This document shows positions 14,562 to 36,831 of a stretch of DNA of 64,000 nucleotides, in pieces (the first letter of the stretch is position 1; each line of letters starts with the position of its first letter). The notes under the pieces were generated by a model. It had not been told where the DNA came from, searched no databases, and worked only from the letters and a program-made list of their open reading frames with translations. The DNA is from Candidatus Methanoperedenaceae archaeon. Lineage in GTDB: Archaea; Halobacteriota; Methanosarcinia; Methanosarcinales; Methanoperedenaceae. The stretch spans positions 32,001 through 96,000 of the forward strand of contig CAVWCX010000001.1 of NCBI GenBank assembly GCA_963753595.1, in the 5' to 3' direction. The position numbers and the translations under genes were made by a program.

Positions 14562-16259
<1,698 letters not shown>

Positions 16260-17177: not shown

Positions 17178-17586
17178 TTAGTTCCTCTTACCGGCCTGGA
17201 TATCCCATCTCACATCTTGCGCCAGAGACCGTCTTGCAGCAGCTGCAATATCTAATTGTTCATATATATATTCACGTAAGTACATATCTTCTATTTTTTC
17301 CGCTTCATTTTCGATCTCATGCTGGCGACTGAGAATGTTTCCAAGTTCTCTTTGTGCATGATTCCTGTCTGTACGCTGCCAGCTTTCAGCTATTGTCGAA
17401 AGCGAGCGCCTTAATCTTTCAAGTCCGATCCTTATCCGGTGGAATTCCGGTCTTTTCAATCTTTCTTTTGCATAGTTTTCATATGGCGATTCCTGTTGAA
17501 TTTCCTCTGAAAATTCATCTATATCCGATACTTCACCATTCCATTTGTTATGGATGGCAAAAACGATCCCTTCTTTGGTTTAACAT
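17178..17586 (-). CDS. Helical hypothetical protein (~135 aa), predicted to be made by +1 frameshift at TTT-TGC (17557-17562) from leader MLNQRRDRFCHP* (17548..17586)
   Basis: +1 frame open for 128 codons from the slip site to the stop at 17178; no ATG before the TTG at 17459. Confidence 0.7.
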
Positions 17587-17615
17587 ATATTTCACATCAT
17601 CTTCATTAAAAAGAT

Positions 17616-17683
17616 GATATATATCCCTGAATATACAGGCAGGTTTTGTCACCATCTAAACAGAACCGGAATTATTACGACAA
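17616..17683 (-). promoter_or_regulatory. Degenerate regulon operator plus TATA
   Basis: ATACAGGCAG (17633-42) + 36 nt + GACAA (17679-83) next to TATATAT. Confidence 0.5.
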
Positions 17684-17726
17684 CAATTGCCTGATAGGGT
17701 AAACTTATGCTGATACTCTTCATAAA

Positions 17727-18035
17727 ATGGTTTCGGTGATCAATATGAGGGATATTTTTACAGGTGATGGGTTTAAGTTGCCAGATACAGGCATTTCAGG
17801 AAAAGGATTGGAAAATTACAGTTCTGCTAAGATCGAAGAATTCTCACCTTCGATGAAACTTGTTCTCAATATACTTGAAAATCATGGGCCACTGACACAA
17901 AAAGAGATAACGAAGGTAACCCGTCTTCCCACAAGAACAGTGCGCTATGCCTTAAACAGATTAAAACAGGAAGATATTTTAGAAGAGCGTGAATATTTCC
18001 AGGATGCCAGGCAGTGTTTATATCATATAAAATGA
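17727..18035 (+). CDS. Winged-helix (MarR/TrmB-like) transcriptional regulator
   Basis: KLVLNILENHGPLTQKEI...LPTRTVRYALNRL...DARQCLY. Confidence 0.88.
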   Translation: MVSVINMRDIFTGDGFKLPDTGISGKGLENYSSAKIEEFSPSMKLVLNILENHGPLTQKEITKVTRLPTRTVRYALNRLKQEDILEEREYFQDARQCLYHIK

Positions 18036-18080
18036 TTAGGCTTTTTTCAGGACTCTACAAGACTTGTTTTCAGGTAATAA

Positions 18081-18150
18081 TTGCCTTTGTCTTTCTGGAA
18101 ACCGAATGAATATATCAAATTTGGCTCATTTACTCGATTTAAATATATAT
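18081..18150 (+). promoter_or_regulatory. Regulon operator plus TATA
   Basis: TTGCC (18081-85), CCGAATGAA, TGGCTCATTT (18122-31) at 36-nt spacing, then TTTAAATATAT. Confidence 0.65.
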
Positions 18151-18176
18151 GAAAACTATGTTGTTTTGGTGATAAA

Positions 18177-18333
18177 ATGACACTACAAGAAAACAGAAGG
18201 GATTTACTTTGTCCCCGGAATAAAATACAGTAAAACAAAAAAGGCTATCAATCCCGAAAGTGATCAGGAGAAAGCATTGGGCGAATTTCAGGTTAATGCC
18301 CGGATGCATGATAATGTCTGGTGGCTTATATGA
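18177..18333 (+). CDS. Leader MTLQENRRDLLCPRNKIQ* (18177..18233) with +1 extension from CTT-TGT (18207-12) whose TGA overlaps the next ATG
   Basis: GGTGA RBS, ATG, shared motif AGA AGG GAT TTA CTT TGT; +1 frame open 42 codons ending in an ATGA overlap at 18330-33. Confidence 0.7.
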
Positions 18334-18479
18334 CCGCGACCAGACAGTACAAATGCCCGAACTGCAAACATTCGATATCGATAGCAACGGCAGATTTCAT
18401 CCGGGGGATTGCCATGACATCATGCGGTGATTGCGGCAGGAATGCTTTTGCAATAGACGAAGTTCTGTTGAATGGATAA
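18330..18479 (+). CDS. Small Zn-ribbon protein, 49 aa (below track cut-off)
   Basis: MTATRQYKCPNCKHSISIATADFIRGIAMTSCGDCGRNAFAIDEVLLNG; two CxxC pairs, GGTGG RBS. Confidence 0.8.
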   Translation: MTATRQYKCPNCKHSISIATADFIRGIAMTSCGDCGRNAFAIDEVLLNG

Positions 18480-18545
18480 AAAAAAACAGGGCGCTTTAAA
18501 TGATCCTATCCATTGGCGCCCCTTTCCTTATTTTTTGAGGTAAAA

Positions 18546-18641
18546 ATGAATAATAATAATGAAGAAAGAAATAAAAATAAAAATCCAGATGATGATGAAG
18601 ACCTGAGGCGCTTCCTGCGTGGAGGTTTTGGGGCAAAGTGA
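18546..18641 (+). CDS. Putative 31-aa peptide MNNNNEERNKNKNPDDDEDLRRFLRGGFGAK
   Basis: GAGGT RBS just before ATG; no homology recognised. Confidence 0.4.
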   Translation: MNNNNEERNKNKNPDDDEDLRRFLRGGFGAK

Positions 18642-18791
18642 GCGCACGAGCAATAACGGAATGTGTCCGGGGGGTCACATTTCACCTCCTGTTTTATTAC
18701 TTCCAAAAGAATCAGATCAGTTGTGACAACAATTGCTCCGATAAATAGGTTTATAAAGGTTAAATCCAAGTTTAAGCTGGAGAATTTAAAA

Positions 18792-19080
18792 ATGAATTTT
18801 AGAAGGAATCGTCTTTGCCATTACTGGCCCACAGATTGAATCGATAAAGATAGACCATTTACCGCCATCAGCAAAACTTGTTTTTAAGGTGCTTGAATCG
18901 AGCGGTTTTTTAACACAGAAAGATATTGCAAAGCAAACATATCTTCCGGCCAGGACAGTGCGTTATGCCCTGAACAGGCTGAAAGAAGAAAAAATATTGC
19001 AGGAGCGCTTCTATTTCCAGGATGCGCGCCAGAGCCTTTATGGGCTGAATGTTATTGTTCCGGGGGTGGTGAACGTATAA
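18792..19080 (+). CDS. Winged-helix regulator (~95 aa), predicted to be made by +1 frameshift at CTT-TGC (18813-18) from leader MNFRRNRLCHYWPTD* (18792..18839)
   Basis: Paralog of 17727 gene; homology (KIDHLPPSAKLVFKVLE vs KIEEFSPSMKLVLNILE) extends upstream of the GTG at 18889 into a frame with no ATG/GTG/TTG. Confidence 0.8.
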
Positions 19081-19150
19081 TTTACCTTACCTCCTTATTT
19101 TTTAGACCGCTGCTAATCACTTTTTTTGTAAAATCGAATTATTCGGGTAA

Positions 19151-19510
19151 TTATACGCGCGAATCTCTCAGCCTGTATTTAGCATACGCCAGAACATTCT
19201 CCTCAATGAACCCCGGAGCTTCAACTGGCTCTATACCCATGCTCTGCAATCCTTCTGCAGCCCCTCCTCCGATCCTGCTGCACAGCACCGCATCGCAGTC
19301 ATTGATCAGAGAAACACTTTTTTCAAGAGCATCATCGGCATGACCGCCATACTCAAGAGTACCGCATGAGGGATCGTTCTCTCTCACCTCAATGACTTTG
19401 ATCCCTTCTCCATCGGATTCTATTATGATGAATTTTCTTGCCTTCCCGAAATGCTGGTTAATAACCTTACCATCACTTGAAGCAATTGCCATCTTTAAAC
19501 TTGTCTTCAT
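19151..19510 (-). CDS. NifX/NifB-family (FeMo-cofactor-carrier-like) protein
   Basis: AIASSDG..INQHFGKA..DCDAVLCSRIGGGA. Confidence 0.88.
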   Translation of the reverse strand: MKTSLKMAIASSDGKVINQHFGKARKFIIIESDGEGIKVIEVRENDPSCGTLEYGGHADDALEKSVSLINDCDAVLCSRIGGGAAEGLQSMGIEPVEAPGFIEENVLAYAKYRLRDSRV

Positions 19511-19514
19511 GATC

Positions 19515-20378
19515 TCACACCAGCGGTCTTGGCTGCTTTTCATTGGGCAGTACCGGGAGCTTCATCGTATTCACAAGGATCGGGTCTTTCACTTCTTTTG
19601 CCCGCTCAAGCAAAAACTCTCTTCCTCTTCTGGTGATCGCGAATATGGGTACAGCCGTGCCGAATTGCGCTATGGTCTTTCCAGCTACGCCAGCCCGTAT
19701 CCATTTTGATGTGCAGCCTGTGGTCATATCCACAAGATCGATAAATTCTTTTGCTTCGTTATCAGGCATGCCTGTTGAATGTACTCCGAATGCTATTACT
19801 TCAGAGCCGGTTTCCTTTTCGATTTTTCTTATTTCTTTGAGATCTTTGAGATTTGCCACGGATACACCTATCTTCCTGTATCCAAGCTTTATGGCTTTTC
19901 TCACCCCGCTCACCTGGTCTATCGCGGCAGTGTCGGGGTCAATGACCACGCCGTCAGCAGCCTCTATCCTTTTGATCAGCCCCTGTATTGGTGACGTCTC
20001 CGTCAGTCCTGATATGCGCGAGCCCATGCCCTGACAGAGTTTGGGATTGCTCGTGATTACTGTGCCCGCCCCGTCGCAAACGGTAACTGTGGTGTCGAGC
20101 AGCCCGCGCCGCAGGGCGGTCATGAAAGTTTCGCTTGCCCCGAACCCCACGAATATCTCCATCTCCAGTTCACGGTTCTCTGTGAACATGCCGAAATCTT
20201 TCATCCTGAATTCTATATTTTCCCTGGCGGTCTTTGGGGTGAATTTCTTGATCCCCCTGACCTTATCAAAGATGGGACAGTACTCAGTCATCGGAACACC
20301 GACCTCAATTACCTTCCCGTTCTCAATGACTACTCGCGTTCTGCCCTGAAGTTCCATTACATGTCGTTCTTTTGGCAT
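19515..20378 (-). CDS. Methanogenesis marker protein 8 (DUF2099)
   Basis: HVMELQGRTRVVI, YCPIF, NIEFRMKDFGMFT, VCDGAGTVI, GMGSRISGL. Confidence 0.85.
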   Translation of the reverse strand: MPKERHVMELQGRTRVVIENGKVIEVGVPMTEYCPIFDKVRGIKKFTPKTARENIEFRMKDFGMFTENRELEMEIFVGFGASETFMTALRRGLLDTTVTVCDGAGTVITSNPKLCQGMGSRISGLTETSPIQGLIKRIEAADGVVIDPDTAAIDQVSGVRKAIKLGYRKIGVSVANLKDLKEIRKIEKETGSEVIAFGVHSTGMPDNEAKEFIDLVDMTTGCTSKWIRAGVAGKTIAQFGTAVPIFAITRRGREFLLERAKEVKDPILVNTMKLPVLPNEKQPRPLV

Positions 20379-20543
20379 AATTTGCCTCCTTATATTATGA
20401 ATAGTCCTTGCATACTTTTAACGGCTGGCTTTTCGGCAAATTGAGTGAAAAAAGAGGCAAATTTTGCCTCAATTGTATAGCTCGTTAGGTGGGTTTAATG
20501 TTGAGAATTAAGCAATTTTTCCTTTTCGGCAATAACTTACCAA

Positions 20544-20777
20544 TCACCCCTTCTTCACAAAAATGTGGTATGCTCCCTCTTTTGTTTTGACATCAAGGAA
20601 CTCATCACCGGATTTTGTCAACCATACATCGATATTTTGCCAGGCTTCAGGATCGCTGGCTATGACCTCGAGTATTTCACCTTTGTTGAGTTTTCTTAAT
20701 TCCTGAAGTGTCATTACTCGTGGATAGGGGCATTTCTCTCCACGGACGTCCAGCTTAACATTTGAAATTATGGTCAT
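20544..20777 (-). CDS. tusA: TusA-family sulfur carrier
   Basis: LDVRGEKCPYP. Confidence 0.9.
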   Translation of the reverse strand: MTIISNVKLDVRGEKCPYPRVMTLQELRKLNKGEILEVIASDPEAWQNIDVWLTKSGDEFLDVKTKEGAYHIFVKKG

Positions 20778-20788
20778 TATTAACCGCC

Positions 20789-21829
20789 TTATTTTTTATT
20801 TATATCTGCAATTGCCGCTTCTAAAAAGCTCTTATCTATCCAGGAATTGTAATCCACTTTTCCTTCCAGTAAATTATTTTCCTTCATGAATTCCTCTTCG
20901 TCTTTCAGGGCTTGAATTGAAAGATCTGTAATTCTCGGGTCATTATAAACGGTCTTATTGTCGGGATACGCTGCCCTTGTAGCTGTCTCGTTTTGTTTTT
21001 TTGCTTTAGCAAATATTTTCATTGCTTCATCAAAATGTTCATCTGCCCATTGCGATGTTTTCAGATCGATTTTCAATAATCTTTTTACGATTTCAGGATG
21101 TTTCTTTGCAAAATCTCCACGAACGTTGATCGGACTTGGTGGTGATTGGAATTCGGGATGATCTTTTCCACTCCATAGTATTCTTGCTTCCCCTGTGGAT
21201 AAAAGTGGAAATGTTGTACTCTCGCTTTCTACAAGAGCATCGACATCCCCTCTTATCAAGGCTGGACCGGAGGCTGTAAAATCGAGATTGAACGATTCAA
21301 TATCTTTGATAGACAATCCCTCTGTTTTCAATGCTTTTGTAATAGTTGCATGGCGCACAGTCCCTTTCAAATAAGCCACTTTTTTGCCTTTTAGATCCTT
21401 GACGGATTTTATAGCTGAATCATTCCTGACTATTATTGAAGAGGCTGAAATCGGATTACCAAAAGATGAGAGCCCAATTAGTTTGATATCTGCACCAGCT
21501 GCTGCGGTACGCAAAGCCGGATCAGTACCAGTATACGTGAAATCAAGACCGCCGCTGGCTAAAGCTACCATAGCTTCGGAGCCTCCGCCAGTAAATGGAT
21601 AATACTCTATTTTTATCCCATCCTTTGCGAATTCTTCATCCAACCACCCTTTTTCTATGTTTAATAAGAATTTGAGATGGCCAGGGGCTGTACTTCCAAT
21701 TTTAATTACTGAGATCTTTTCCTCACTATTTTGTGAGTTATTTTCATAAAAATAAATACCCGCCGAGCCTATTAATAAGGCTATTATCCCAATACTTAAT
21801 GCTGATTTACGTGTCATATTTTCCCACAT
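20789..21829 (-). CDS. SsuA/TauA-like ABC substrate-binding protein
   Basis: N-terminal anchor, ALASGGLD, IKSVKDLKGKKVA, FAKKHPEIVKRLL. Confidence 0.88.
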   Translation of the reverse strand: MWENMTRKSALSIGIIALLIGSAGIYFYENNSQNSEEKISVIKIGSTAPGHLKFLLNIEKGWLDEEFAKDGIKIEYYPFTGGGSEAMVALASGGLDFTYTGTDPALRTAAAGADIKLIGLSSFGNPISASSIIVRNDSAIKSVKDLKGKKVAYLKGTVRHATITKALKTEGLSIKDIESFNLDFTASGPALIRGDVDALVESESTTFPLLSTGEARILWSGKDHPEFQSPPSPINVRGDFAKKHPEIVKRLLKIDLKTSQWADEHFDEAMKIFAKAKKQNETATRAAYPDNKTVYNDPRITDLSIQALKDEEEFMKENNLLEGKVDYNSWIDKSFLEAAIADINKK

Positions 21830-23233
21830 TTATTTAAGTATCTCTATAAATGATTCTATACGATTCTGTGTCTGTTCAACTGATTCTAATCGTCCCAGTT
21901 CAGCAACTTCCAGGTTAATTGTTGGGACCCCTGTTTCTTCTTTCACAATGTCGGCGATCATCCTGGAAACAGCCGATTGGTAGCTGCATCCCCAGTTATA
22001 GCCGCATATAACACCATCAGCTCTTGATTTTTTCACTAATCCGACTATCCACTCAGCACGCACCTCAGTGGATTGTTCATAGGAATACGAAAGCACGCTT
22101 CGGGCTAATTTTTCATACGAATCGCCTGTTTCCTCAACATCGGCATAAATTTTGTTTAAGTGGTCATCTGTTCCCACTATTAAACCGCCTTTTTCTTCTA
22201 CGAAATCACCGCGAAGACCAAAGCACGAACCGCATGAAAATACCCTGACCGGATCGTCCTCTAATCCATCTGCTTTTACCGAGTGCTTTATCCGATCCTT
22301 TACTTCACGTTTTGCCCCCTCAAGAAGCTGTGTTGCGGCAAGAGAATCGCCTCGATCAAACCTGCCAAGAGTGATAGTACTTGATGTCTCTGTACTATTT
22401 ATTGGAGGAGTTGATGCCGACCAGGAAAGCTCAACCGTTTCACGCGCCAGCCGCCGTCCTTTATTTTCCAGCTTGATCTCCTTTTTCAGATCTTCATCGC
22501 TGGCTTCACTACCTTTTATTTCACCGATCTTTTTTATCAACCCATAAATTCTTGCTGCAAGATATTTTACTGTCCAGTCTTTATCCCGGGTGATAGGATA
22601 ATCGATTAAATATACAGGTACCTTGTGTTTATGAGTTCTATAAGATTCGATCGCATAAGCAATATCTGAGCAGCGTAAGCACATATACGGTGCGATCAGA
22701 TCAACAGGTACTAATTCTTGATGAATTGATTCTATGGCAGCTATTGGATTGTTGCACGCCTCGATAGAGACTGCTTTTCTTCCGCCTTCAAGTATTGTAT
22801 TCACGCGCTTGCCCGCTTCTCGTAAATTTAACCCTTCTTCCATATCCCTTGCCCAGCCCCTGAGTGGTCCTGGAACAATGGGTATCCCTCCGGCTGCAAA
22901 ATAAGGATCAACGGTCTGCCCTCCCTGAACATGTATGATCGGTGTACCCTGGCTATGTGCTTTTAAAAGGCGGTCCCTCAGTGTAAGAGAAAGATAGCCC
23001 CTTTTTATCCCGCTGAAGAATCCCACATCTTTTGACAATTGGCTATTGTGGAATCGTCCCAAACTGAATGCATGGGGAAATCTTCTTGGAGCTTCTTTTG
23101 TCATAAAATTCCAGATATCGGTGGATGAAACATGTGTCCCATCCCTGAAATCAAGTCCAGGGGTTTCTATAAATCGTTCTTTTATTTCTTCGGGGTATGA
23201 AAAGATTTCTTCGTTGTTATTTAATTTATTCAT
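21830..23233 (-). CDS. 2-hydroxyacyl-CoA dehydratase/benzoyl-CoA reductase-family Fe-S subunit (double-cubane-protein-like)
   Basis: ADGVI.....CSYQ, GVPTINLE, QNRIESFIE C-terminal signature; several Cys. Confidence 0.82.
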   Translation of the reverse strand: MNKLNNNEEIFSYPEEIKERFIETPGLDFRDGTHVSSTDIWNFMTKEAPRRFPHAFSLGRFHNSQLSKDVGFFSGIKRGYLSLTLRDRLLKAHSQGTPIIHVQGGQTVDPYFAAGGIPIVPGPLRGWARDMEEGLNLREAGKRVNTILEGGRKAVSIEACNNPIAAIESIHQELVPVDLIAPYMCLRCSDIAYAIESYRTHKHKVPVYLIDYPITRDKDWTVKYLAARIYGLIKKIGEIKGSEASDEDLKKEIKLENKGRRLARETVELSWSASTPPINSTETSSTITLGRFDRGDSLAATQLLEGAKREVKDRIKHSVKADGLEDDPVRVFSCGSCFGLRGDFVEEKGGLIVGTDDHLNKIYADVEETGDSYEKLARSVLSYSYEQSTEVRAEWIVGLVKKSRADGVICGYNWGCSYQSAVSRMIADIVKEETGVPTINLEVAELGRLESVEQTQNRIESFIEILK

Positions 23234-23245
23234 ATTTCCTCTTAT

Positions 23246-23430
23246 TTATTTAAGTATCTCAATAAATGATTCTATTCGATTCTGTGTTTGTTCTACAGAT
23301 TCCATCCTGCCAAGCTCGGCAACTTCGATATTGATAGTTTGAATTCCTGTTTCTTCTTTAACAATGTCTGAGAGTATTCTGGAGATCCCGGACTGGTAAT
23401 TTGTTTATCCTGTCTATTTGATTGATTCAT
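23246..23430 (-). pseudogene. Internally deleted paralog of the dehydratase subunit (start fused out of frame to last ~50 codons)
   Basis: YQSGISRILSDIVKEETGIQTINIEVAELGRMESVEQTQNRIESFIEILK* nearly matches the C-terminus of 21830..23233. Confidence 0.85.
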
Positions 23431-23475
23431 ATTTTTAATCCCATATTTTCATAATTATATATTATAAATAATATT

Positions 23476-24336
23476 TTATAATATTGCTGTATCATGTTCC
23501 CCTTTCCAGTATGTTGCTTTCTTTTCCATCCAAACAAGTGCATAGTTTAGTGATAGACCAATTATTGCAAGAGTTAATATTCCCGCATACATCTCGGGAA
23601 TGCGAAACATTAGCTGGGAATCCTGGACAAAATACCCTAATCCTGATTTAGCAGCCAGCATCTCAGCGCCAATTACTACCATCACAGCCGCTTTGGCTGA
23701 AAGCCTCGCACCGGCGATAATAGATGGAATAGTTGCCGGGATGATGATTTTTTTGAAGAGATCTATATCCGATATCCCAAATGATTTAGCGGCTTTTATA
23801 AAAAGAGGATCAACACTCTTTACCCCACTTATTGTATTAATTAACATATACCAGAGCGCCGCATAAAATACTATAGCGATCTTTGAAGTTTCACCGATTC
23901 CAAACAGCATGATGAATAATGGAAGCAAAGCGAATTGCGATGTGTTTCTTAAACTCTGGATGAGTAGATCCGTATACTTTTCAACACGCGAATACCATCC
24001 CATCAAAAGCCCCAATGGAATAGCAATAATGGCGGCTAATCCAAATCCCAGAATAGATCGTTCCATACTTGCTTTTGCATGAAATAATATTTCTCCAGAT
24101 AAAACAAGATTTTTTAGAGTTAAAACTGTTTCAGAAAAGGTGGGGAAAAATATCGAACTGACTAAACCTGTCCTGGGCAGCACCTCCCATGCAAAAAAGA
24201 AGGCAAACAGAAGTATAAGACCATGAGCATGTTTGCTTATTTTTATAATCTTCTCTTTAAATCTCTTTATAAAGCCTTCGATCCCTAAAAAATCTACTTT
24301 TAATTCTTCTTTAGAACTGAATATTTCTTCTACCAT
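23476..24336 (-). CDS. SsuC/TauC-like ABC permease
   Basis: LINTISGVKSVDPLFIKAAKSFG, GAEMLAAKSGLGY. Confidence 0.9.
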   Translation of the reverse strand: MVEEIFSSKEELKVDFLGIEGFIKRFKEKIIKISKHAHGLILLFAFFFAWEVLPRTGLVSSIFFPTFSETVLTLKNLVLSGEILFHAKASMERSILGFGLAAIIAIPLGLLMGWYSRVEKYTDLLIQSLRNTSQFALLPLFIMLFGIGETSKIAIVFYAALWYMLINTISGVKSVDPLFIKAAKSFGISDIDLFKKIIIPATIPSIIAGARLSAKAAVMVVIGAEMLAAKSGLGYFVQDSQLMFRIPEMYAGILTLAIIGLSLNYALVWMEKKATYWKGEHDTAIL

Positions 24337-24362
24337 CTGTATTATCCTCCTTTTTTTCTTTT

Positions 24363-25199
24363 CTATCTTGCATACACAGATGCCAGCTCCCAATCTTTCT
24401 GTGCTTTGAGTACTTCTTCTTTAAGCGCTCCCCAGACTTTATGCCGGTTGTCTGCGAATTCATTACTTGATCTTATGTCTGCGTCTCTTGGTCTTGAAAG
24501 ATCAATATCTAATATTGTTTTTATAATTCCAGGTCTGGCTGTCATAACAGCGACCCTGTCTGCAAGGAATACTGCTTCGTCGATACTGTGAGTTACGAAG
24601 ATAACAGTTGTATGAGTTTTTTCCCAGATTTTGAGAAGCTCATTCTGAAGAATTTCACGGGTTTGTGCATCCAGGGCGGCATAAGGTTCGTCCATCAACA
24701 ATACATCAGGATTGGTTGCAAGCGCTCTTGCTATGGCAACTCTTTGCTGCATACCACCGGAAAGTTGATAGGGAAATCGATCTCCAAAGTCTGACAACCC
24801 GAATTGAGACAAAAGCTTTTTTGCAATTTGTCCTCTTTCCCCTTTTGGAACATTTCGCATTTCTAGTCCGAATTCTATGTTAGAAAGAGCTGTCCTCCAT
24901 GGAAACAACGCATACTGCTGGAATACATATGCAGTTTTGATATTAGGGCCGTCAAGAATTTTGTCATCGATATAGACTTTTCCGGTGGTATGATTTGTCA
25001 ATCCGCCAATTATATCAAGAAATACTGATTTTCCGCAACCACTTGGACCAACAAGTGTGAGAAATTCCCCTTTTCTGATGTTCAGGTTAACGCCAGCCAG
25101 CACCTCAACTTCATTGGAAATCAAGCCGTTGCTGATCACTTTCTGCCCATCTTTAAGTTTAAATTTTTTCGTAATGTCCTCAGTTCTTATTTTGTCCAA
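24363..25199 (-). CDS. SsuB/TauB-like ABC ATPase
   Basis: GPSGCGKS, VFQQYALFPW, LSGGMQQR, VTHSIDEAVFLADR. Confidence 0.93.
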   Translation of the reverse strand: MDKIRTEDITKKFKLKDGQKVISNGLISNEVEVLAGVNLNIRKGEFLTLVGPSGCGKSVFLDIIGGLTNHTTGKVYIDDKILDGPNIKTAYVFQQYALFPWRTALSNIEFGLEMRNVPKGERGQIAKKLLSQFGLSDFGDRFPYQLSGGMQQRVAIARALATNPDVLLMDEPYAALDAQTREILQNELLKIWEKTHTTVIFVTHSIDEAVFLADRVAVMTARPGIIKTILDIDLSRPRDADIRSSNEFADNRHKVWGALKEEVLKAQKDWELASVYAR

Positions 25200-25310
25200 T
25201 CAAAACATCTCCTTCCAATCGTATTCGACTGCGGTATTGTCATTAATTCTTGATCGCAGAATTTCAATAAAAGCCTCAACGCGATTTTGAGAGCTGTATA
25301 GCTCTTTCAC
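25200..25310 (-). pseudogene. 36-aa in-frame stub of another deleted dehydratase-family subunit
   Basis: MKELYSSQNRVEAFIEILRSRINDNTAVEYDWKEMF*; GTG overlaps upstream TGA, stop abuts next TTG. Confidence 0.75.
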
Positions 25311-26500
25311 GCATTTACCTCCTGAATATTTTTATTTCTTACAAGCTCTATAAAAGCCTCAGCTCTTGTTCGTATAGCTCCTTCATCAGAACCGGCATAT
25401 TCCGTATGGATCTCAAGCAAGGGTATTCCCTCTGTTTTGAGAACGTTCTTTGTTTCGCCTGCCTTGAAAGTCCAGGGATCGCAATATCTCAATGTGTGAT
25501 AGATTACTCCCTGCGCCCTGTTGTCTTTGATCAATTGTTTCAGATTTTTAAGCCTCTTATCCGTTTCCAATTCCAAATAAGGTAGCGATGCATGAGGAAC
25601 CCGGTTAAGATATGCGTCTGCTATGCCCTCTATAGAAGGTTCTTTAATATTTACATCCAGGATCGGGTTAAGCCCAGACCACAGGTCATCTCCTACTATC
25701 GTGCCGCCCACCTGCTCGATAATATTTATCAGCTTTCTATCTTTAGGAGGAATTATGCTGCCGGATATGAAAATGCGGGCATCTCCGTTAAGATTTCCAG
25801 TTTTTGGGGTGCCGTGTTTTTCTTTCAGTTCTTTTAAAAGTTCCTGGAGTAATGAATTATACCGCCCTCTATCAAGGTAATATCCTGCCTGTACTATATC
25901 GAAAACTTCACGCCATTTTATAGGTGGTTTGTCAGCTGATTGGTATTTGTATAATTCTATTATGGATTTCCTTATGCTATTGTAAAGTTTGATGGATTCT
26001 GCAAGTTTCTTCTTATCAAGTTCGGTTCCTGCGAATTTTTCTAATCTATGCGTGAAGGCCTCTACTTCTTTGCGGAAATATTCCTGTCCTTCAGGCAGAT
26101 CAAAATTCTTTGGAACTCCAAGAATATCAGTGTTGACCTTGAAGTAATGTTTTATAAGCTCTGCCACGCGGTATGTTTGTAAGCAGGTTGCATCCACTGC
26201 TACCAGATCTGAATTTTTAATATATGGATCCTGGTTCTCTGCAAAGAGCCCTACGAGCTCTCTTGTAAAAACACAATTCTTTGTGGATATATACCTGGAG
26301 CCAATTTCAACCAGTCTGTCGTCTCCTCCTGTTCCAAGCCTGATCGGGATTAATCCAAGGGCGTGGATGATCTCTTCAGGGATATTGTAATTAAACCACC
26401 CAACAACCTTTTCCCCTTTTTTTCTTGCTTCTGCAAGCTCCTGAGGTCTATCCTTTACTGCATTTTCTATTTTGTTTATAGTCTCTAATACCATACTCAC
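25307..26500 (-). CDS. 2-hydroxyacyl-CoA dehydratase/BCR-family subunit (HgdB-like)
   Basis: IPEEIIHALGLIPIRL, GVIYHTLRYCDP, IRTRAEAFIE. Confidence 0.88.
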   Translation of the reverse strand: MSMVLETINKIENAVKDRPQELAEARKKGEKVVGWFNYNIPEEIIHALGLIPIRLGTGGDDRLVEIGSRYISTKNCVFTRELVGLFAENQDPYIKNSDLVAVDATCLQTYRVAELIKHYFKVNTDILGVPKNFDLPEGQEYFRKEVEAFTHRLEKFAGTELDKKKLAESIKLYNSIRKSIIELYKYQSADKPPIKWREVFDIVQAGYYLDRGRYNSLLQELLKELKEKHGTPKTGNLNGDARIFISGSIIPPKDRKLINIIEQVGGTIVGDDLWSGLNPILDVNIKEPSIEGIADAYLNRVPHASLPYLELETDKRLKNLKQLIKDNRAQGVIYHTLRYCDPWTFKAGETKNVLKTEGIPLLEIHTEYAGSDEGAIRTRAEAFIELVRNKNIQEVNA

Positions 26501-27303
26501 ACCTTTGAGCCATAGCTCCTGGCGAGTACTGCCGCTCCCAGTGCCCCAACCAACTGCGGATCATATTCTGGCGCAACTATCTTCGCTTTAAGTACTTCTT
26601 CCAGCGCTGCTTTCATTCCTACATTTTTTGCAACTCCGCCTGAGAAGAAAACATCGCTCTCCACACCTACACGCGAAAACATCCCTGATATCCTGTTTGC
26701 AATGGCATGGTGTATTCCTTTAATTATATTCCCCGGTTTCTCACCTCTTGCCAGCAGTGAGACTGTTTCGGATTCTGCAAAAACCGTGCATGTGCTGCTC
26801 ATCGGGACGATTTCTTTTGCATTTAATGACAGCGGACCCAGGTCGTTCAGTTTAACCTTAAAAACATTTGCCATAACTTCAAGGAACCGCCCTGTTCCTG
26901 CTGCGCATTTGTCGTTCATTGCAAAATCTACAACGTTTCCTTTCTCATCCAGGCGGATCGCTTTGCAATCCTGCCCACCCATGTCTATTATTGTTCTTGT
27001 TGCAGGGTGCAGGTAATGTGCCCCCCTGCCATGGCAGGTAATCTCGGTTACTGTTTTATCTGCATAAGGCGCTGAGATCCTTCCATAACCGGTTGCAACT
27101 ATGTATTTCAGGTCATCACGCTTGAGTTTTGCAGATTTAAGCGCTTTTTCAAGAGCAAGCAAGCCGCTCTCTTCTGAGTTCAATCCGGATTGAACAAGAC
27201 CATACCCGAGGATCGAGCCATTTGACACAATTACTGATTTTGCTGTCAGCGAGCCTACATCCACACCCGCAAATGGCGGTTTTATATTTGATTTCGTTGT
27301 CAT
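26497..27303 (-). CDS. ASKHA-type CoA-dehydratase activase / ATP-dependent reductase (HgdC/BadFG-like)
   Basis: GVDVGSLTAK, ATGYGR, EITCHGRG, IDMGGQD, MNDKCAAGTGRFLE, CTVFAESE. Confidence 0.95.
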   Translation of the reverse strand: MTTKSNIKPPFAGVDVGSLTAKSVIVSNGSILGYGLVQSGLNSEESGLLALEKALKSAKLKRDDLKYIVATGYGRISAPYADKTVTEITCHGRGAHYLHPATRTIIDMGGQDCKAIRLDEKGNVVDFAMNDKCAAGTGRFLEVMANVFKVKLNDLGPLSLNAKEIVPMSSTCTVFAESETVSLLARGEKPGNIIKGIHHAIANRISGMFSRVGVESDVFFSGGVAKNVGMKAALEEVLKAKIVAPEYDPQLVGALGAAVLARSYGSKV

Positions 27304-27348
27304 ATCTTCCTCCTCTTTTACTAAGAGTAAGGTCAATATTCCCTGTGG

Positions 27349-27424
27349 ATATATCACAGTTTAGAAATCAGCAACTATCGCCCTATTTATTCCAGATTCT
27401 GCATGATTGCGGCAATATTTTCCG
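27349..27424 (-). promoter_or_regulatory. Regulon operator plus TATA
   Basis: AAATCAGCAA (27365-74) + 36 nt + GGCAA (27411-15). Confidence 0.8.
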
Positions 27425-29984: not shown

Positions 29985-30004
29985 GGCTAAACTCTAAAAA
30001 GCAA

Positions 30005-30155: not shown

Positions 30156-30227
30156 AACAACGAACAAAAATGAACTGAAACGAACTCCGGTGGCGTGAGT
30201 TCGTTTGGTTCGTACGAGTTCGTTGTT
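30156..30227. repeat. Long imperfect palindrome built of periodic GAAC/GTTC units
   Basis: AACAACGAAC..TGAAC..CGAACTC-loop-GAGTTCG..GTTCG..GTTCGTTGTT. Confidence 0.7.
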
Positions 30228-30296
30228 AATTTTCAACCAGACGCAAGGCGAAATCGCAAAGGAGAGGGCAGGGTGCGGGTATGTGCCGTTGAATCC

Positions 30297-30818: not shown

Positions 30819-30819
30819 T

Positions 30820-32063: not shown

Positions 32064-32088
32064 GGTTATTTGTTCATAGACTTAAAGC

Positions 32089-32165
32089 GGATATATAGCA
32101 CTAATTATGTAAGCAAGTGTTGTCCTGTTTATTCGGAAAAGCGAAGGGTAGGGGCAAAATATTGT
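32089..32165 (-). promoter_or_regulatory. Regulon operator plus TATA
   Basis: ATGTAAGCAA (32107-16) + 36 nt containing TTTATTCGG + GGCAA (32153-57). Confidence 0.8.
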
Positions 32166-32238
32166 CTGATAAAAACAGTGTATATCCAAGTTCACGTAAA
32201 TCGTCGACAGTAAAGAAATATTTGAATCAGAGACCCCA

Positions 32239-32279
32239 AATCCGCGCATATCCGCGTAATCCGTGTCATCCGTGTTCCC
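32239..32279. repeat. 9-10-bp-period ATCCGYG repeat
   Basis: AATCCGCGCATATCCGCGTAATCCGTGTCATCCGTGTTCCC. Confidence 0.65.
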
Positions 32280-32629
32280 TTTGATTTGATGATTATTATT
32301 TCATCCCCCAAAACAACAACGACCAAAACCCAGCCTATTCCATATCCTGCTGTCATTTCTGCGTCTCCTGTTATCTAAAAGAGTATAGAGTTTACATGCA
32401 GTATTTCTTTTCTCAAACCTGATATCCACAGCCTTAACCTAACATTAGGATAAACCAACACGAATTATAATGGACACAAAAAATCGCAATCCACATATAC
32501 ATACTGAACAGTATGTTACTATATGGTATGCTTCATCAACCGAAAGAATGCAGATAAATCCTGTTGATAAAAACTAATCCATATCCTCCCTCAACTGCGC
32601 CGTTTTCGTAAAAAAGCTAAGGAGGGGTT

Positions 32630-34751
32630 TTATCTCCTCAGTACCATATATCCTGTGCCAACAAGACCTGCCACAGCAAACAATATCCAATCATATTGCC
32701 GGGGTTTCGCATTATCAACGGGTTTTGTTACTGGCGAACTGGCCTGGACTGCGACGGCTGACGATGTGGATGGGGTTGTTGTTTCTGCCGACGTGGAAGA
32801 TTCAGCAGATGGGGTGGTTGCATTAGCAGTTGCAACTTTTAAATCTACTTTTGGAGCATCCTTGATCACCTGTTCAAAAAATGGATAGAATCGCAGTGCA
32901 GTTGAACTGTCAGCCACCTTGAATTTTAGTCCATTTGCAAGATCAATAACAGCATTCTGGCCAAGGTTTATGTTGTTCTTATTGTGGAGCAGAACGTAAT
33001 TCTCATTCGCTTCTTTTACCTCAAATATTCCGAACTTATCTCCTGTTTTTATTTCAAGCACATTGCGGGATATAAGCCATGTGTATCTGAGCTGCACAAA
33101 TGTTTCCGCGTCTTTGCGCCCCTGAAAATATACTGTCCACATAGGTAACGAATACAGGCACATTGGACTCTCCCTTCAGGTCTTTCTCTGAATAAGTGTA
33201 TACTTCTCCCTCATTTACTACTTTAATATCTAATGTTATTCCATCTTTTGTCAGGGAAAGTGATGCCTGTCTTGGATTTGTTCTTACATCAAGAGCATCA
33301 ACTGTTAGATTATATCCTTCACCAAGGTTCCATGTCGTTCCAAGCTTTAGTGTCTGTTTTTCCTGTTTATCCTGCTCCTTTATCAGTTTGGCTAACTTAT
33401 TTGCCTTGCCATTCACGGCAACATAAAGCCCACCCTACCAGCCAAGGCGTGCATAGAAGCCTCCATTCCTGCTATTCATGAACGTCTTTGTTGTGCTATT
33501 GTACTCAAGAGCATTCTCAATTTTCAAGCCTTTTTCACTGAATACCTTATATTTTTGGTCTGTCCGGGATGTATTATAAAGCAGCTTTTCTGCCTCAATA
33601 GTCCTGCTCGCATTGGTCAAAGTTGATGCGCTCTGATCAACGACTAGACTTTCACTTGATTTTCCACCACCTGATGCATACCAGAATCCTGAAAATCTTT
33701 GCGCATCCCATACAAGAGTCTTATACTTGCTTTCGTCATAAGCGCCGCCTCTTAATTCATATTTTCCGGGTTTTGTTTTTTCAAGGATCGGATAAAAGCG
33801 AAGTGCTGTTGCGCTATCGGCTACCTTGAATTTTAGATCGCCATACAACGGCTGTACCGAGTTCTGGCCAAGGTTTATTGATTCTTTATTATATAAGGTC
33901 ATGGTGTTTTCTGTTGCTTCTTTTACTTCAAAAACACCGAATTTATCCCCTATCTTTATTTCAAGCACATTATTTGATATCAGCCATGTGTACTTAAGCT
34001 GGACAAAGGCAGCTTTGTCTTCAGCGCCTGTGAAAATACCATCAATGTAGGTGACAAATAGCGGTACGCTGGATTCTCCACCCAGGCTTTTTTCGGTATA
34101 GGTATAGACTTCACCTTCATTAACTACCTTTATATCCAGTGTTTTGCCATCCTTTGTCAGGTTAAGCCATGCCTGTCTTGGGGATGTTTTTGCATCAATG
34201 GCTTCAAGGGTAAGATTGTAGCCTTCTGGGAGTCTCCAGGTCTCACCGAGCTTTAATGTCTGCTTTTCTTCTGCCTTTTGTTCTTTTACAAGTTTTGCCA
34301 GCTTGTTCGCTTTTCCATTCACAGCTACATAAACGTCGCCAAACCATCCAAGCCGTGCGTAATATCCGCCCGTAGTATTTCTTGTAAAGATCTTGCTGGT
34401 ACTGTTATATTCAAGACCGTTCTCTACTAATTTACCTTTTTCACTGAAAACCTTATATTTCTGGTCAGTACGAACGGTATTATACAGGAGTTTTTCTTCA
34501 TTGATGATCCTGCTACCTGTTTTCAGGCTTGACGCAGCCTGGTCTATCCTGAGGGTTTCACTTGATTTCCCGCCGCCTGACGCATACCAGAAACCAGTAA
34601 AATTCTGTGCATCCCACAGCAATGTGGTATTATATTTATTTGAGCTCTCATCAAAAACCACGCCGTGGATCTCAACTTTAGTCACGTTGCCAGCTGTCAC
34701 AGGTAGTGCGGAAATTAATATGATCGCAAGTATTGCCAATATTTGTTTCAT
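32630..34751 (-). pseudogene. Methanosarcinales S-layer protein (two DUF1608 repeats, Thr/Ser linker, C-terminal anchor) with in-frame TAG at 33435-37 and frameshift at ~33115-33125
   Basis: WDAQNFTGFWY..SETL, LKFKVAD..LRFYP repeated twice; three track ORFs join into one ~705-aa protein. Confidence 0.85.
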
Positions 34752-34786
34752 TTTTATAACCTCTGTGTTCAGAGATTTTTCCAAAT

Positions 34787-34862
34787 CTATATAATGTTAG
34801 AGAAATCAGCAACAGTTGTCGCAATTCATCCATAAACAGAATAAATCGAGCAAAGGATTCCG
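34787..34862 (-). promoter_or_regulatory. Regulon operator plus TATA
   Basis: AAATCAGCAA (34803-12) + 36 nt + AGCAA (34849-53). Confidence 0.8.
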
Positions 34863-34974
34863 CTTTGATTCCATAATGGAAGAATTCAAAACAAAATCAA
34901 ATTTTTTGCAATAATTGAACAAAATGAAAAAAGTAATTACGAAAAATCATCTATATGACGAGAAACGCGGATAT

Positions 34975-35193
34975 TCAGTGTTTTTTTATGATGACTTTAA
35001 AATCACTGCCAGATTCCTCGATCCGTACTACTTCATGCCCATGTTCCCTGGTCCATTGAGGAATTGCATTTCTTGCAGTAACGTCATCGGTTAAAATTTC
35101 AAGTTCTTCGCCGGTTTTTAGCCCATCTATCTGTTTTTTGGTATAAAACAATGGTAACGGGCATACTCTACCTCTTGCATCTATTTTGTGCAT
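34975..35193 (-). CDS. tusA: TusA-family sulfur carrier
   Basis: IDARGRVCPLP. Confidence 0.9.
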   Translation of the reverse strand: MHKIDARGRVCPLPLFYTKKQIDGLKTGEELEILTDDVTARNAIPQWTREHGHEVVRIEESGSDFKVIIKKH

Positions 35194-35271
35194 GTGTGGT
35201 AGTATGAATGCCGGCATATTTTAAGTTTGTATTAAGGCAAAAAATGTAAGAGTTATTCGCTTTTTGATAAA

Positions 35272-35505
35272 TCAGCTTTTTCGTACAAAGATACTATAAT
35301 TTCCTTTGATAGCCTCTACGGCAAGCAGTTCATTCCCTGATTTCTTTGCCCATGCATCTATATTCTGTGGAGCTACAGGGTCGCTGGCAAGGATTTTTAA
35401 TACCTGCCCCTTTTGAAGTTTGTCCACCTGCTGTTTTGTCCGTATCAAAGGATAGGGGCATGCTTCGCCCCTTACATCCAGTTCGAAGTCGTGAACTATT
35501 GTCAT
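35272..35505 (-). CDS. tusA: TusA-family sulfur carrier
   Basis: LDVRGEACPYP. Confidence 0.9.
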   Translation of the reverse strand: MTIVHDFELDVRGEACPYPLIRTKQQVDKLQKGQVLKILASDPVAPQNIDAWAKKSGNELLAVEAIKGNYSIFVRKS

Positions 35506-35506
35506 A

Positions 35507-35881
35507 TCAGAACACCAGTGTCACTTCACTCTCCAGTATCCTGTTCGTCAGGTCATCGATGTTAAGTTTAGATATTCCTTCGATAATTTCGCTGTCAGCC
35601 ACACCTCTTTTCTTCAGGTCCGCCTCCAGGGCATAGAACTTCACGCTATCCTTTGCCTTAATGATGCTTGCTTCAATGCTTGGCACATCTTTCTGCCATA
35701 CAGCAGCATCGCCGTAGCTGGTCTTCTGTCCCTTTACCACAGAGTGAACACCTCCACTCACAAAAGTGATGGACGGCGAATTTCCTGCCGCAGCCTGCGT
35801 CTCAGCAAGCGGGATCGCGCTGTATGCATCTTCCTTGCCGTAAGGGGGCTGTGTCACGATTATGTTTACTTTCTTGCTCAT
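35507..35881 (-). CDS. DsrF/TusC-like protein
   Basis: IIVTQPPYG, FVSGGVHSVVKGQ, ADLKKRGV. Confidence 0.85.
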   Translation of the reverse strand: MSKKVNIIVTQPPYGKEDAYSAIPLAETQAAAGNSPSITFVSGGVHSVVKGQKTSYGDAAVWQKDVPSIEASIIKAKDSVKFYALEADLKKRGVADSEIIEGISKLNIDDLTNRILESEVTLVF

Positions 35882-35886
35882 TTTTA

Positions 35887-36267
35887 TTACCCTAATAATA
35901 TGGTCTTGTCTGATTCTGCTGTCCATTCACCAAGATCGTAAAGTCCGCCGATGACAACGCCTTCTGTCTGCTGTTTTGTCACACCGCGGGCATCTGTGCA
36001 TTTGATGCATGCTATTGCATCGGTCTTGGGATTCTTCAGTCCTTTCTTGAGAACGGTGCCAAAGAGCTGCTCAACGACTGGGAATTCTTTTGGTCCCTGG
36101 TCGCGGTGTCCGATCAACGTGCCATCCAGGTAGTTGAAGAAGTTGACATTGATCCCTTTCTCTTTTGCAGCATGGGCGAGCCTGATAAGCGTGTATGCCG
36201 CTTCATCGCGATATGGGCCGTTTATCGATACGATCGTTAAGGTTTTATTATAGCCGTTGTTTGCCAT
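35887..36267 (-). CDS. DsrE/TusD-like protein
   Basis: GPY, FFNYLDG, ACIKCTDARG active-site Cys. Confidence 0.85.
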   Translation of the reverse strand: MANNGYNKTLTIVSINGPYRDEAAYTLIRLAHAAKEKGINVNFFNYLDGTLIGHRDQGPKEFPVVEQLFGTVLKKGLKNPKTDAIACIKCTDARGVTKQQTEGVVIGGLYDLGEWTAESDKTILLG

Positions 36268-36276
36268 TGTATCACC

Positions 36277-36603
36277 TTAGAACCATGCCACTCGTGTGTT
36301 ATCTTCAACTATGTTGTCAAGGAGTGTTCCTATTTCATTTACCTGTACCCGGTCGGCCAGGTTCCCGTCAAGTCCCCTTGACTGCACAGCCCTGTCATCT
36401 GCAAGGATTTTGATGCCTTTCTTTTTAGCATCCTGGAGTTTATTCCCGAATTCACTTTTCCGAGCAGCGGTAACTCCGTCCTCTACAAGATAAAGAGAAA
36501 CATTGTTGCCTTTTGTTTTGGCATTTAACCCGATATCCAGAACGAGATTTGGTATCTCGGTCGTATATGGGTCTTTGGATAATACCAGTAATAGATTTGT
36601 CAT
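36277..36603 (-). CDS. DsrH/TusB-like protein
   Basis: LYLVEDGVTAA, AVQSRGL. Confidence 0.82.
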   Translation of the reverse strand: MTNLLLVLSKDPYTTEIPNLVLDIGLNAKTKGNNVSLYLVEDGVTAARKSEFGNKLQDAKKKGIKILADDRAVQSRGLDGNLADRVQVNEIGTLLDNIVEDNTRVAWF

Positions 36604-36605
36604 GT

Positions 36606-36831
36606 TTATCTACCTCTGAAATTAATTGTTCGTTTATTATTCAATCCGGCAGTCAATTCATTCTCAACTCTTGCTATCATAGAATCAAGTGTTTCAAGTA
36701 TCGGCGTTCTTCTTTGCGCCCTTGAATACTCAAATTCGCGCCATTCCCTTAAGGTATTGAGGACCGGGGTTGTTTTCTGTGCTTTGCCTTTATCGGTGAC
36801 AAAGGCGATTCCTTCTTTTTATCTGATTAAT
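36606..36831 (-). CDS. Leader (ATT)NQIKRRNRLCHR* (36790..36831) with +1 extension from CTT-TGT (36799-36804) ending 2 nt before the dsrH-like ATG
   Basis: GGTGA RBS 6 nt before ATT; AGA AGG AAT CGC CTT TGT CAC; +1 frame open 66 codons (VTDKGKAQKTTPVLNTLREWREFEYSRAQRRTPILETLDSMIARVENELTAGLNNKRTINFRGR*). Confidence 0.7.

Follow-up and report, generated by a model that had tools for sequence, protein, structure and literature searches.

The stretch of DNA considered here (hereafter the window) comprises 64,000 nucleotides (nt) from a Candidatus Methanoperedenaceae archaeon (assembly GCA_963753595.1, contig CAVWCX010000001.1, positions 32,001 to 96,000) and contains four short leader open reading frames (ORFs), each of which carries a copy of the 18-nt motif AGAAGGRATNNNYTTTGY close to its start codon. 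The original prediction, made from the letters of the window alone, had proposed that ribosomes slip into the +1 frame at the Cys codon of these leaders when Cys-tRNA is scarce, and that sulfur-starvation genes are switched on in this way. In the present analysis, the leaders are compared with their counterparts in related genomes and with leaders in which a Leu or an Ile codon takes the place of the Cys codon.

Four leaders and their +1 reading frames

In the four leaders of the window, frame 0 stops after 12–18 codons, while the +1 frame is open for 131, 45, 92, and 69 codons counted from the GAA that overlaps AGAAGG. In the list below, the P-site codon is the one that would occupy the ribosomal peptidyl (P) site in the proposed shift, and the slot is the codon following it, which would stand in the aminoacyl (A) site.

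17548..17586 (−): leader 1, frame 0; ATG 17586-17584, motif 17574-17557, P-site TTT 17562-17560, slot TGC 17559-17557, stop TAA 17550-17548
17178..17573 (−): family A protein (130 amino acids, aa), +1 frame of leader 1; 131 codons from GAA, no canonical start before codon 39
18177..18233 (+): leader 2, frame 0; ATG 18177, motif 18195-18212, P-site CTT 18207-18209, slot TGT 18210-18212, stop TAA 18231-18233
18196..18479 (+): family B, +1 frame of leader 2, fused or coupled to a zinc ribbon; +1 ORF 18196-18333, 45 codons, then zinc-ribbon protein to 18479
18792..18839 (+): leader 3, frame 0; ATG 18792, motif 18801-18818, P-site CTT 18813-18815, slot TGC 18816-18818, stop TGA 18837-18839
18802..19080 (+): family C winged-helix regulator, +1 frame of leader 3; 92 codons, HTH_24 at 25.7 bits versus a cut-off of 21.9
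36790..36831 (−): leader 4, frame 0; ATT start 36831-36829, motif 36816-36799, P-site CTT 36804-36802, slot TGT 36801-36799, stop 36792-36790
36606..36815 (−): family D small protein (69 aa), +1 frame of leader 4; 69 codons, no Pfam family

The four leaders thus lie where they had been predicted, with the ATG or ATT starts, early frame-0 stops, and open +1 frames described at the time. The ATT of leader 4 (36829-36831) occupies the position of the ATG in its orthologs, at an equal distance from GGTGA. Two of the +1 frames end at the start of the next gene, again as predicted: the family B ORF terminates in an ATGA that overlaps the ATG of the zinc-ribbon gene, and the stop of family D lies 2 nt ahead of the ATG of a TusB/DsrH-like gene. 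In other genomes (L004, L006) the family B ORF and the zinc ribbon are joined as a single +1 ORF; the Pfam zinc-ribbon matches of the gene after family B are all below the cut-off, and no Pfam family reaches the cut-off for the family A protein. In family C, a start at the first canonical codon (GTG 18889) would cost 29 residues.

Leaders and downstream genes in related genomes

Since the motif pattern was built from the same four sites, its enrichment in the window (four copies in 64 kb, with 0.01 expected and none of 100 shuffles giving four) is post hoc, and the independent test is provided by other genomes. The four matches are the only ones in the whole source genome (G000; 2,888,054 bases). 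In the wider search suggested with the original prediction, the motif was found in 34 of 36 genomes of the same genus, Candidatus Methanoperedens, with 1–6 copies each, and in 2 of 24 genomes that belong to other families of the order; the control with the reversed pattern was nearly empty. A looser pattern was discarded as uninformative at the family level, since it matched 53 of 53 genomes and its control was non-zero.

Altogether, 133 unique strict-motif sites were collected (189 loci plus the source genome), of which 131 had enough flanking sequence for evaluation. The architecture was defined by an in-frame ATG, GTG, or TTG 1–7 codons before AGA, a frame-0 stop 7–13 codons after AGA, and a +1 frame that is closed 0–34 codons upstream, contains no canonical start (as checked from its upstream stop to 6 codons past the motif start), and stays open for at least 20 codons downstream. 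All these features occur jointly at 106 of the 131 sites, compared with 43 of 1,777 (2.4%) other AGAAGG sites in the source genome. The 106 leaders start with ATG (102), GTG (3), or TTG (1), and 96 of them have a Shine–Dalgarno (SD)-like sequence of the GGTGA/AGGTG/GGAGA type within 16 nt of the start. The P-site codon is CTT in 79 and TTT in 27, each followed by T, as imposed by the search pattern; the slot reads TGC in 81 and TGT in 25, which extends the synonymous variation of the Cys codon first noticed in the window, and position 19 is C in 81. At 19 sites a stop closes the +1 frame immediately before GAA, and the earliest frame-0 stop lies 7 codons after AGA; therefore, any change of frame would have to occur inside the motif.

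The 25 remaining sites comprise four family D leaders with ATT at the ATG position (leader 4 of the window among them), two with ACG at the start position, seven with an incidental start farther up the +1 frame, one with a long frame 0, and 11 inside ordinary ORFs. Near-cognate codons (ATT, ACG, ATA) stand at the exact ATG positions of leaders at L015, L037, L089, L066, L104, L144-L152, and L164, several of them in the clade of G000, which suggests that weak initiation is tolerated or that translation of the leader is tuned. At least six unrelated families of +1 ORFs have only the cassette in common, namely the families A (26 loci outside the source genome), B, C, and D of the window, family E (44 aa), and a short sixth one.

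When the TGY requirement was dropped, a 511-aa synthase of the LeuA/CimA type appeared, which has no start of its own and lies behind ATG ACA AAT AGA AGG GAT CGT CTT TTA. Two paralogs of about 500 aa, here called C11 and C7, were then traced through the genus by homology and not by the pattern. All 30 loci of the C11, or LeuA, type read ATG-N-AAY-N-AGG-RAT-CGT-CTT-TTA-C with the enzyme in the +1 frame, and the leader stops in frame 0 at 7 codons after AGG (6–7 over all LeuA contexts). Counted as unique contexts, of which four come from three sister genera, 33 of 33 read AGG RAT CNT YTT TTA C, again with the enzyme in +1; thus, the slippery P-site codon (CTT/TTT followed by T) is present in every one of them, here located without the motif pattern. 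No canonical start lies ahead of the catalytic DTTLRDGEQ motif in 22 of the 30 loci. In 11 of them a TGA closes the +1 frame directly before GGG-ATC, and therefore the shift would lie inside the motif; an ATG found at the same place in eight loci, G000 included, was considered as the true start of the enzyme and rejected as incidental, since those 11 orthologs have TGA there. The LeuA leaders carry GCG, GTG, or GGA in place of AGA, so that AGG-RAT is the sole part common to all classes. Consequently, the AGA AGG of the original prediction holds for the Cys motif while AGA is dispensable elsewhere, and the RRxR peptide proposed as a stimulator is not a universal one.

In the C7, or CimA, type, an Ile codon occupies the slot, in frame with the leader, in 28 of 34 unique contexts. 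Seventeen contexts read GGTGA-N-ATG-AAY-AGA-AGG-GAT-NNN-TTT-ATY followed by a stop (GGC-TGA in G076), with the enzyme in +1, and in one ATA replaces ATG. Ten more, from the clade of G000, are one base shorter ahead of AGAAGG and one base longer behind it: these compensating 1-nt insertions and deletions (indels) hold ATA...TTT-ATT-TAA in frame and leave the enzyme in +1 relative to the leader, while the ATT at motif positions 8–10 falls out of frame with the enzyme. In the three sister genera, all four LeuA leaders keep TTA, one CimA leader reads TTT-ATT-TAG, and another reads TTT-ATC-GGC-TGA; this synonymous ATC without a following stop argues for the Ile codon, and not the stop, as the conserved element. 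Immediately ahead of their CimA leaders, L156, L160, and L168 have a GC-rich hairpin (CCCCGCATT-N-AATGCGGGG), and in G029 a GC-rich hairpin abuts the enzyme frame where the leader has been deleted.

The two synthases are assigned to one archaeal subfamily by NCBIfam, and neither PDB sequence matches nor the gene neighbourhood separate them. The close relatives of C7 are named (R)-citramalate synthase by NCBI or D-citramalate synthase by JGI, beside older labels of 2-isopropylmalate synthase, whereas relatives of C11 carry the name 2-isopropylmalate synthase in JGI, NCBI, and UniRef, with no citramalate synthase among the 120 listed. By annotation, then, Leu (TTA) stands before LeuA and Ile (ATT/ATC) before CimA, which in methanogen-type archaea commits the pathway to isoleucine. 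The LeuA proteins found outside the family have a plain start and begin M-R-N-K...; in Methanoperedens the position of this Met holds Leu or Val and is preceded by about ten residues. Public calls of LeuA in the genus start at the incidental ATG, or as MVFYT, as would fit an ATC taken for the start, or are shortened to 450 aa and lack the catalytic motif. Evidently, gene callers find no start codon for LeuA and CimA in Methanoperedens. Many entries of the two enzymes (P0144, P0011, and others) are N-terminally truncated to 450 or 465 aa and lack DTTLRDGEQ.

The frame arrangement is kept in 44 of 49 genomes of the genus and in three sister genera, so that four genera of the family carry the device. 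The set of a genome consists of four Cys leaders plus those of LeuA and CimA, and frameshift leaders are not a genome-wide system: a scan of G000 by architecture alone, with loose cores, returned mostly noise and no additional convincing leader. A supposed Tyr-slot variant (ATG CCT CGT GAT AGA AGG GAT TAT TTT TAC) was dismissed as a false positive, being a normal in-frame N-terminus with frame 0 open for about 190–250 codons; the long ORF behind it is presumably of the RlmE/FtsJ kind. Two further loci resemble the cassette. At L036, near 6195 (G032:C57:61194) and 2 kb from a family A/B cluster, a leader-like ORF reads ATG AGA ATA CAA ACA AAC AGA AGG GAT TTG TTT ACT..., with ACT in the slot and frame 0 open for 55 codons, which may be a decayed or a different cassette. 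At L098 (G061:C14), a near-identical segment with AGAAGGAATCTGTTTTTGCC occurs twice, about 4.4 kb apart, with a 66-codon +1 ORF, and looks like a repeated element and not like a leader.

The genes that lie behind or beside the Cys leaders of the window are as follows.

34975..36603 (−): sulfur-relay operon behind leader 4, three DsrE/DsrF/DsrH(TusB)-like genes and TusA
16869-17168 (−): 99-aa ORF after family A
13364..15872 (−): MetX (homoserine O-acetyltransferase-like) and MetY (O-acetylhomoserine sulfhydrylase family), same strand, downstream of leader 1
19151..27357 (−): neighbouring operon with NifX-like protein, methanogenesis marker 8 (DUF2099), SsuA-family sulfonate-binding protein, two HGD-D proteins, ABC permease, ABC ATPase, and BcrAD/BadFG activase

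As to the sulfur genes anticipated near the leaders, DsrE/DsrH(TusB)-like genes and/or TusA lie behind family D, on its strand, in 17 of 18 loci outside the source genome; the 18th ends about 270 nt past the site, hence the proportion is 17 of 17 among loci with downstream sequence. Family A is followed by the same 99-aa ORF in 23 of its 26 loci outside the source genome, and farther downstream, on the same strand, by MetY in 7 of the 26 and also by MetX in 6 of these 7, as in the window. The MetX-MetY pair may be co-transcribed with leader 1. The SsuA-family protein of the 19151..27357 operon scores 250.6 bits against a cut-off of 163.5, and this operon is also found near families A–C in several other genomes. 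It is a candidate target of the co-located regulators. Its mixture of an SsuA-type transporter with HGD-D (2-hydroxyacyl-CoA dehydratase-like) proteins, a BcrAD/BadFG activase, methanogenesis marker 8, and a NifX-like protein is unusual and might represent an organosulfur-processing pathway.

Other features of this region deserve mention. A second winged-helix gene (17746-18035, +) between leaders 1 and 2 begins with ATG AGG GAT ATT TTT ACA. These letters agree with the motif at 12 of 18 positions, yet they share the frame of the protein and may represent a derivative of the cassette that needs no frameshift; in many genomes a homolog of the gene is encoded on the other strand, some 300 nt upstream of family A. 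Two overlapping small ORFs of 75 and 114 aa (16046-16604, +), which may be an RHH antitoxin and a MazF/PemK-type toxin, lie between the family A/99-aa pair and MetY on the opposite strand. Contigs of two public runs lack 63 bases at 18478-18542, where a small Asn/Lys/Asp-rich ORF (18513-18641) starts; the strains differ in length here without a change of frame.

A putative amino-acid sensor and its alternatives

What these genomes show directly is the conserved architecture of the leaders, the frame relations, the lack of in-frame starts, and the agreement of the slot codon with the pathway. On these grounds, we judge it fairly probable that the leaders are prfB-like programmed +1 frameshift sites that serve as amino-acid sensors. 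From the same comparison we infer that a shift does occur, that it takes place at YTT and the slot, that it responds to tRNA charging, and that pairing of AGGRAT(C) with 16S rRNA stimulates it. The overall interpretation of the original prediction, a putative +1 shift at YTT-TGY governed by a hungry Cys codon and tied to sulfur genes, is strongly supported by the comparison, although several of its details need correction. Moreover, the fact that the slot codon varies with the pathway, being Leu before LeuA and Ile before CimA, supports the idea of a hungry codon beyond Cys.

According to the proposed mechanism, translation would start at the leader start codon, either led by an SD or near the promoter, and would proceed through 1–7 codons and then (AGA) AGG RAT NNN. 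With YTT/TTT in the P site, the ribosome would wait for the tRNA of the slot codon (TGY, TTA, or ATT/ATC) to enter the A site. If the charged tRNA is plentiful, frame 0 would continue and end a few codons later, yielding only a peptide of 9–18 aa. If it is scarce, the P-site tRNA would re-pair one base ahead (from CUU/UUU to UUU) and the ribosome would proceed in the +1 frame, whose product would restore the supply, being the committed enzyme of the pathway or a set of sulfur-relay proteins and small regulators. The purine-rich AGGRAT(C) would stimulate the shift by pairing with the 3' tail of 16S rRNA. On balance, we incline to a more general view, in which the cassette, portable and about 20 nt long, with the form (AGA)AGG-RAT-NNN-YTT-[codon X], would act as a modular attenuator through which any downstream ORF is induced by a shortage of charged tRNA-X. 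Evolution would have set X to Cys, Leu, or Ile and put the cassette before the committed enzymes of Leu and Ile synthesis, sulfur-relay operons, and small regulators.

The tail of the 16S rRNA reads ...GGAUCACCUCCU, its gene ending in ...GGATCACCTCCT, and AGAAGG-GAUC pairs with it through one mismatch and one bulge. The pairing energy is −8.7 kcal/mol for the GAT variant of the Cys class and −11.5 to −11.8 kcal/mol for LeuA, compared with −9.0 and −9.8 kcal/mol for the SDs of the leaders themselves; the GAT variants (−8.7 to −11.8 kcal/mol) thus rank among the top 0.2–1.7% of genomic 12-mers, whose mean is −2.9 kcal/mol. Therefore, the SD-like stimulator put forward in the original prediction appears plausible for some leaders, those with GAT, and less certain for the AAT variants, half of the Cys sites, which pair weakly. 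The nascent R-D/N-x-L/F peptide may also contribute. The source genome encodes tRNA-Leu(GAG), tRNA-Phe(GAA), and a single tRNA-Cys(GCA), together with tRNA-Leu(UAA) and tRNA-Ile(GAU). Regarding the origin of Cys-tRNA, the predicted SepRS is present (733.9 bits), and a canonical CysRS is encoded as well (407.6 bits). A shift at AGA and AGG as rare Arg codons was also considered and rejected, because they are the commonest Arg codons (25% and 31%, respectively) and AGA is dispensable in the LeuA leaders.

Several observations weigh against the sensor proposal. Among public RNA runs, none is listed that covers the stretch. The AAT variant, found at 54 of the 106 Cys sites, reaches only −4.0 kcal/mol, a value that 27% of background 12-mers equal or better. 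None of the slot codons is rare, with TTA making up 17% of Leu codons, ATT 32% of Ile codons, and TGC 58% of Cys codons, and there is one codon of the slot type per leader; any sensing would then concern the charging of the tRNA and not the dosage of its gene. For the Ile class, re-pairing would bring the P-site tRNA onto UUA and not onto UUU, with two of three pairs. The CimA leaders are heterogeneous: the slot of L163 is TTT, in L156 the ATG does not share the frame of TTT-ATT-TAA, three loci read straight through, and one is devoid of a leader. In addition, the distinction between LeuA and CimA comes solely from the source names in databases, no function is known for families A, B, D, and E, and the ABC transporter behind family E, with a PstS-like binding protein that scores below the cut-off, has no evident link to sulfur. 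Finally, the near-cognate leader starts, together with an ATG at motif positions 8–10 (+1 frame) in four loci, keep direct initiation plausible.

The first alternative accepts the frameshift and denies the sensor: the shift would run at a fixed low rate or answer to another stimulus, such as general translation stress or the rate of initiation, and the match of codon and pathway would be a coincidence. The common and singly occurring slot codons, the TTT slot of L163, and the four families without known function speak in its favour, as does the presence of CysRS besides SepRS. However, the coincidence would have to be threefold at one motif position, since the slot reads Leu in all 33 LeuA contexts, Ile in 28 of the 34 CimA contexts, and Cys ahead of DsrE/TusA and MetY/MetX, and the slot amino acid is kept through changes that are synonymous in frame 0 (ATT/ATC and TGC/TGT) and non-synonymous in +1. 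We regard this alternative as unlikely.

The main rival, which we find rather improbable, does without a frameshift: the main ORF would start in its own frame at a non-AUG codon, either the ATC/ATT at motif positions 8–10 or an ATA elsewhere, and the ATG-led ORF would be a separate upstream ORF, regulatory or incidental. The conservation of ATY at positions 8–10 in the +1 frame is what recommends it, and ATG takes the place of ATY in L066, L162, L167, and L183, with L066 also lacking the leader ATG; near-cognate codons at leader start positions in several genomes, the public LeuA call that begins MVFYT as if from ATC, and the g18 CimA genes that are open in frame without a canonical start point the same way. 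Nevertheless, AGAAGG ends 1 nt before ATY and so could not serve it as an SD, whereas a real SD lies 4–8 nt ahead of the frame-0 ATG. This ATG is in frame with the slot codon at all 106 sites, where about one third is estimated by chance, and the indels of the G000-clade CimA leaders preserve the frame from the start to TTT-ATT-TAA and not that of ATT with the enzyme. Furthermore, a ribosome stalled at the slot would cover ATY, so that starvation would repress the gene and not induce it, and the match between slot codon and pathway would be left unexplained.

The 18-mer could also be mainly a DNA or RNA operator, such as the site of a winged-helix regulator or a small-RNA target at the 5' end of a regulon, with the frame relations being secondary. 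The motif lies 10–30 nt downstream of TATA-like boxes, winged-helix genes are found within the cluster, and its nucleotides are conserved beyond the needs of a peptide; yet it is not palindromic, and an operator would explain neither the missing starts and the fixed +1 relation (106 + 33 + 28 cases) nor the in-frame leader starts and the pathway-specific slot codon. We hold this reading to be very improbable. Still more remote is the idea that a tRNA with an enlarged anticodon loop reads four bases (quadruplet decoding), or that the T run is a site of transcriptional slippage or of RNA editing. In its favour, T runs of 3–5 are present, and the assembly is 92% complete, so that a tRNA gene could be missing. 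However, aragorn found 35 tRNAs (45 with introns) in the whole genome and none with a four-base anticodon or an odd loop, a constitutive reader would not need three different slot codons, and T runs of this length are shorter than known slippage tracts.

The arrangement is not an assembly artefact, because it recurs across the genomes of the genus and in independent contigs: although all genomes are metagenome-assembled, contigs of four public runs from three studies that cover three of the leaders show no indel inside them among the rows listed, and with essential enzymes (LeuA, CimA) involved, the downstream +1 ORFs conserved, and 44 of 49 genus genomes and three sister genera in agreement, an artefact or decaying pseudogenes can be given almost no credence.

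Known systems and biological meaning

The closest known relative of the proposed device is bacterial prfB, for which passages of the GeneTack survey give a consensus shift site YTT_TRA_C with an upstream SD (PMC3711429); the sites described here read YTT_TGY_C in the Cys class and CTT_TTA_C in LeuA. Both have a short frame-0 ORF, a functional protein in the +1 frame, a P-site tRNA able to re-pair on TTT, and a purine-rich element just upstream, whose pairing with the anti-SD is good in the GAT variants of the archaeal leaders, and in both a slow A site would decide the outcome, making the site sensor and effector at once. Unlike prfB, in which the A site holds a stop codon that the regulated protein itself reads, the archaeal leaders have the sense codons TGY, TTA, or ATT/ATC, and are therefore a variant and not strict members of the type; moreover, the archaeal cassette stands on many unrelated genes, within their first 4–12 codons. 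Its SD-like core is separated from the P-site codon by 6 nt, or by 2 nt if GAUC pairs too, while the spacing in Escherichia coli prfB is 3 nt.

The leaders also recall the attenuation of trp, leu, ilv, and his operons and the T-boxes of bacteria, where codons of the pathway's own amino acid, through their translation or through the binding of tRNA, report the supply of charged tRNA and gate the biosynthetic genes, and where LeuA and the Ile pathway are classic targets. In contrast to attenuation, the regulatory codon here is single and not part of a run, the output would be a change of reading frame within one mRNA, and the sensing ribosome would itself make the product, with no need for a terminator or antiterminator. 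The main ORF overlaps the leader and leaves no room for such hairpins, as read from the sequence, no terminator scan having been made.

That a slow sense codon in the A site, combined with a slippery P-site codon, can cause a +1 shift is described in passages of PMC5009743. Similarly, the yeast elements Ty1 (CUU-AGG-C) and Ty3 use a hungry A-site codon, and the landing codon UUA of Ty1 parallels the Ile class. However, Ty1 and Ty3 set a ratio of mobile-element expression, while the starvation shifts of E. coli (Gallant) are errors and the RF2 cases are laboratory constructs, none of them being conserved cellular regulation. Curran and Yarus reportedly placed sense codons in the A site of RF2-site constructs, where shifting competes with the selection of aminoacyl-tRNA, and this principle of competition is what we propose as the basis of the archaeal device. 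The antizyme frameshift is presented, in the passages concerned, as both sensor and effector of a metabolic feedback loop (PMC5009743); it differs in being eukaryotic, in shifting at a stop codon, in being stimulated by a metabolite, and in its opposite sign, with abundance inducing a repressor. In archaea, according to passages of a 2021 review (PMC8211752), the −1 shift in fucA1 of Saccharolobus solfataricus is the sole frameshift demonstrated in a cellular gene, with a few candidates besides. It occurs at an A-AAA-AAT heptamer in the middle of a single gene and has no known regulatory meaning.

A full-text literature search found no description of such a device, in keeping with the original prediction, which knew of no archaeal precedent, and the same holds for the passages available of PMC8211752, PMC5009743, PMC3711429, and PMC4683180. 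The main text of the GeneTack survey (PMC3711429), as distinct from its supplementary tables, contains neither 'isopropylmalate' nor 'citramalate'. Relative to prfB-type +1 frameshifting, what would be new is the quantity sensed, the domain of life, and the regulatory use.

Amino-acid sensing in archaea has largely remained obscure to date, and we know of no leader-peptide attenuation or T-boxes in this domain. If the proposal holds, the modular attenuator would be the first tRNA-charging sensor known for amino-acid control in archaea, the first natural regulatory use of hungry-codon +1 frameshifting, which has long been treated as an error, and the first conserved cellular +1 frameshift in archaea. 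A prfB site with a sense codon would thus give archaea an equivalent of attenuation without an RNA switch or an extra protein, and such a short and modular cassette is attractive as a synthetic reporter of tRNA charging. For the organisms themselves, the leaders have a further consequence, since the public annotations of Methanoperedens contain wrong or shortened calls of LeuA, CimA, and the small regulators, which affects the metabolic models of these nitrate- and metal-dependent methane oxidisers.

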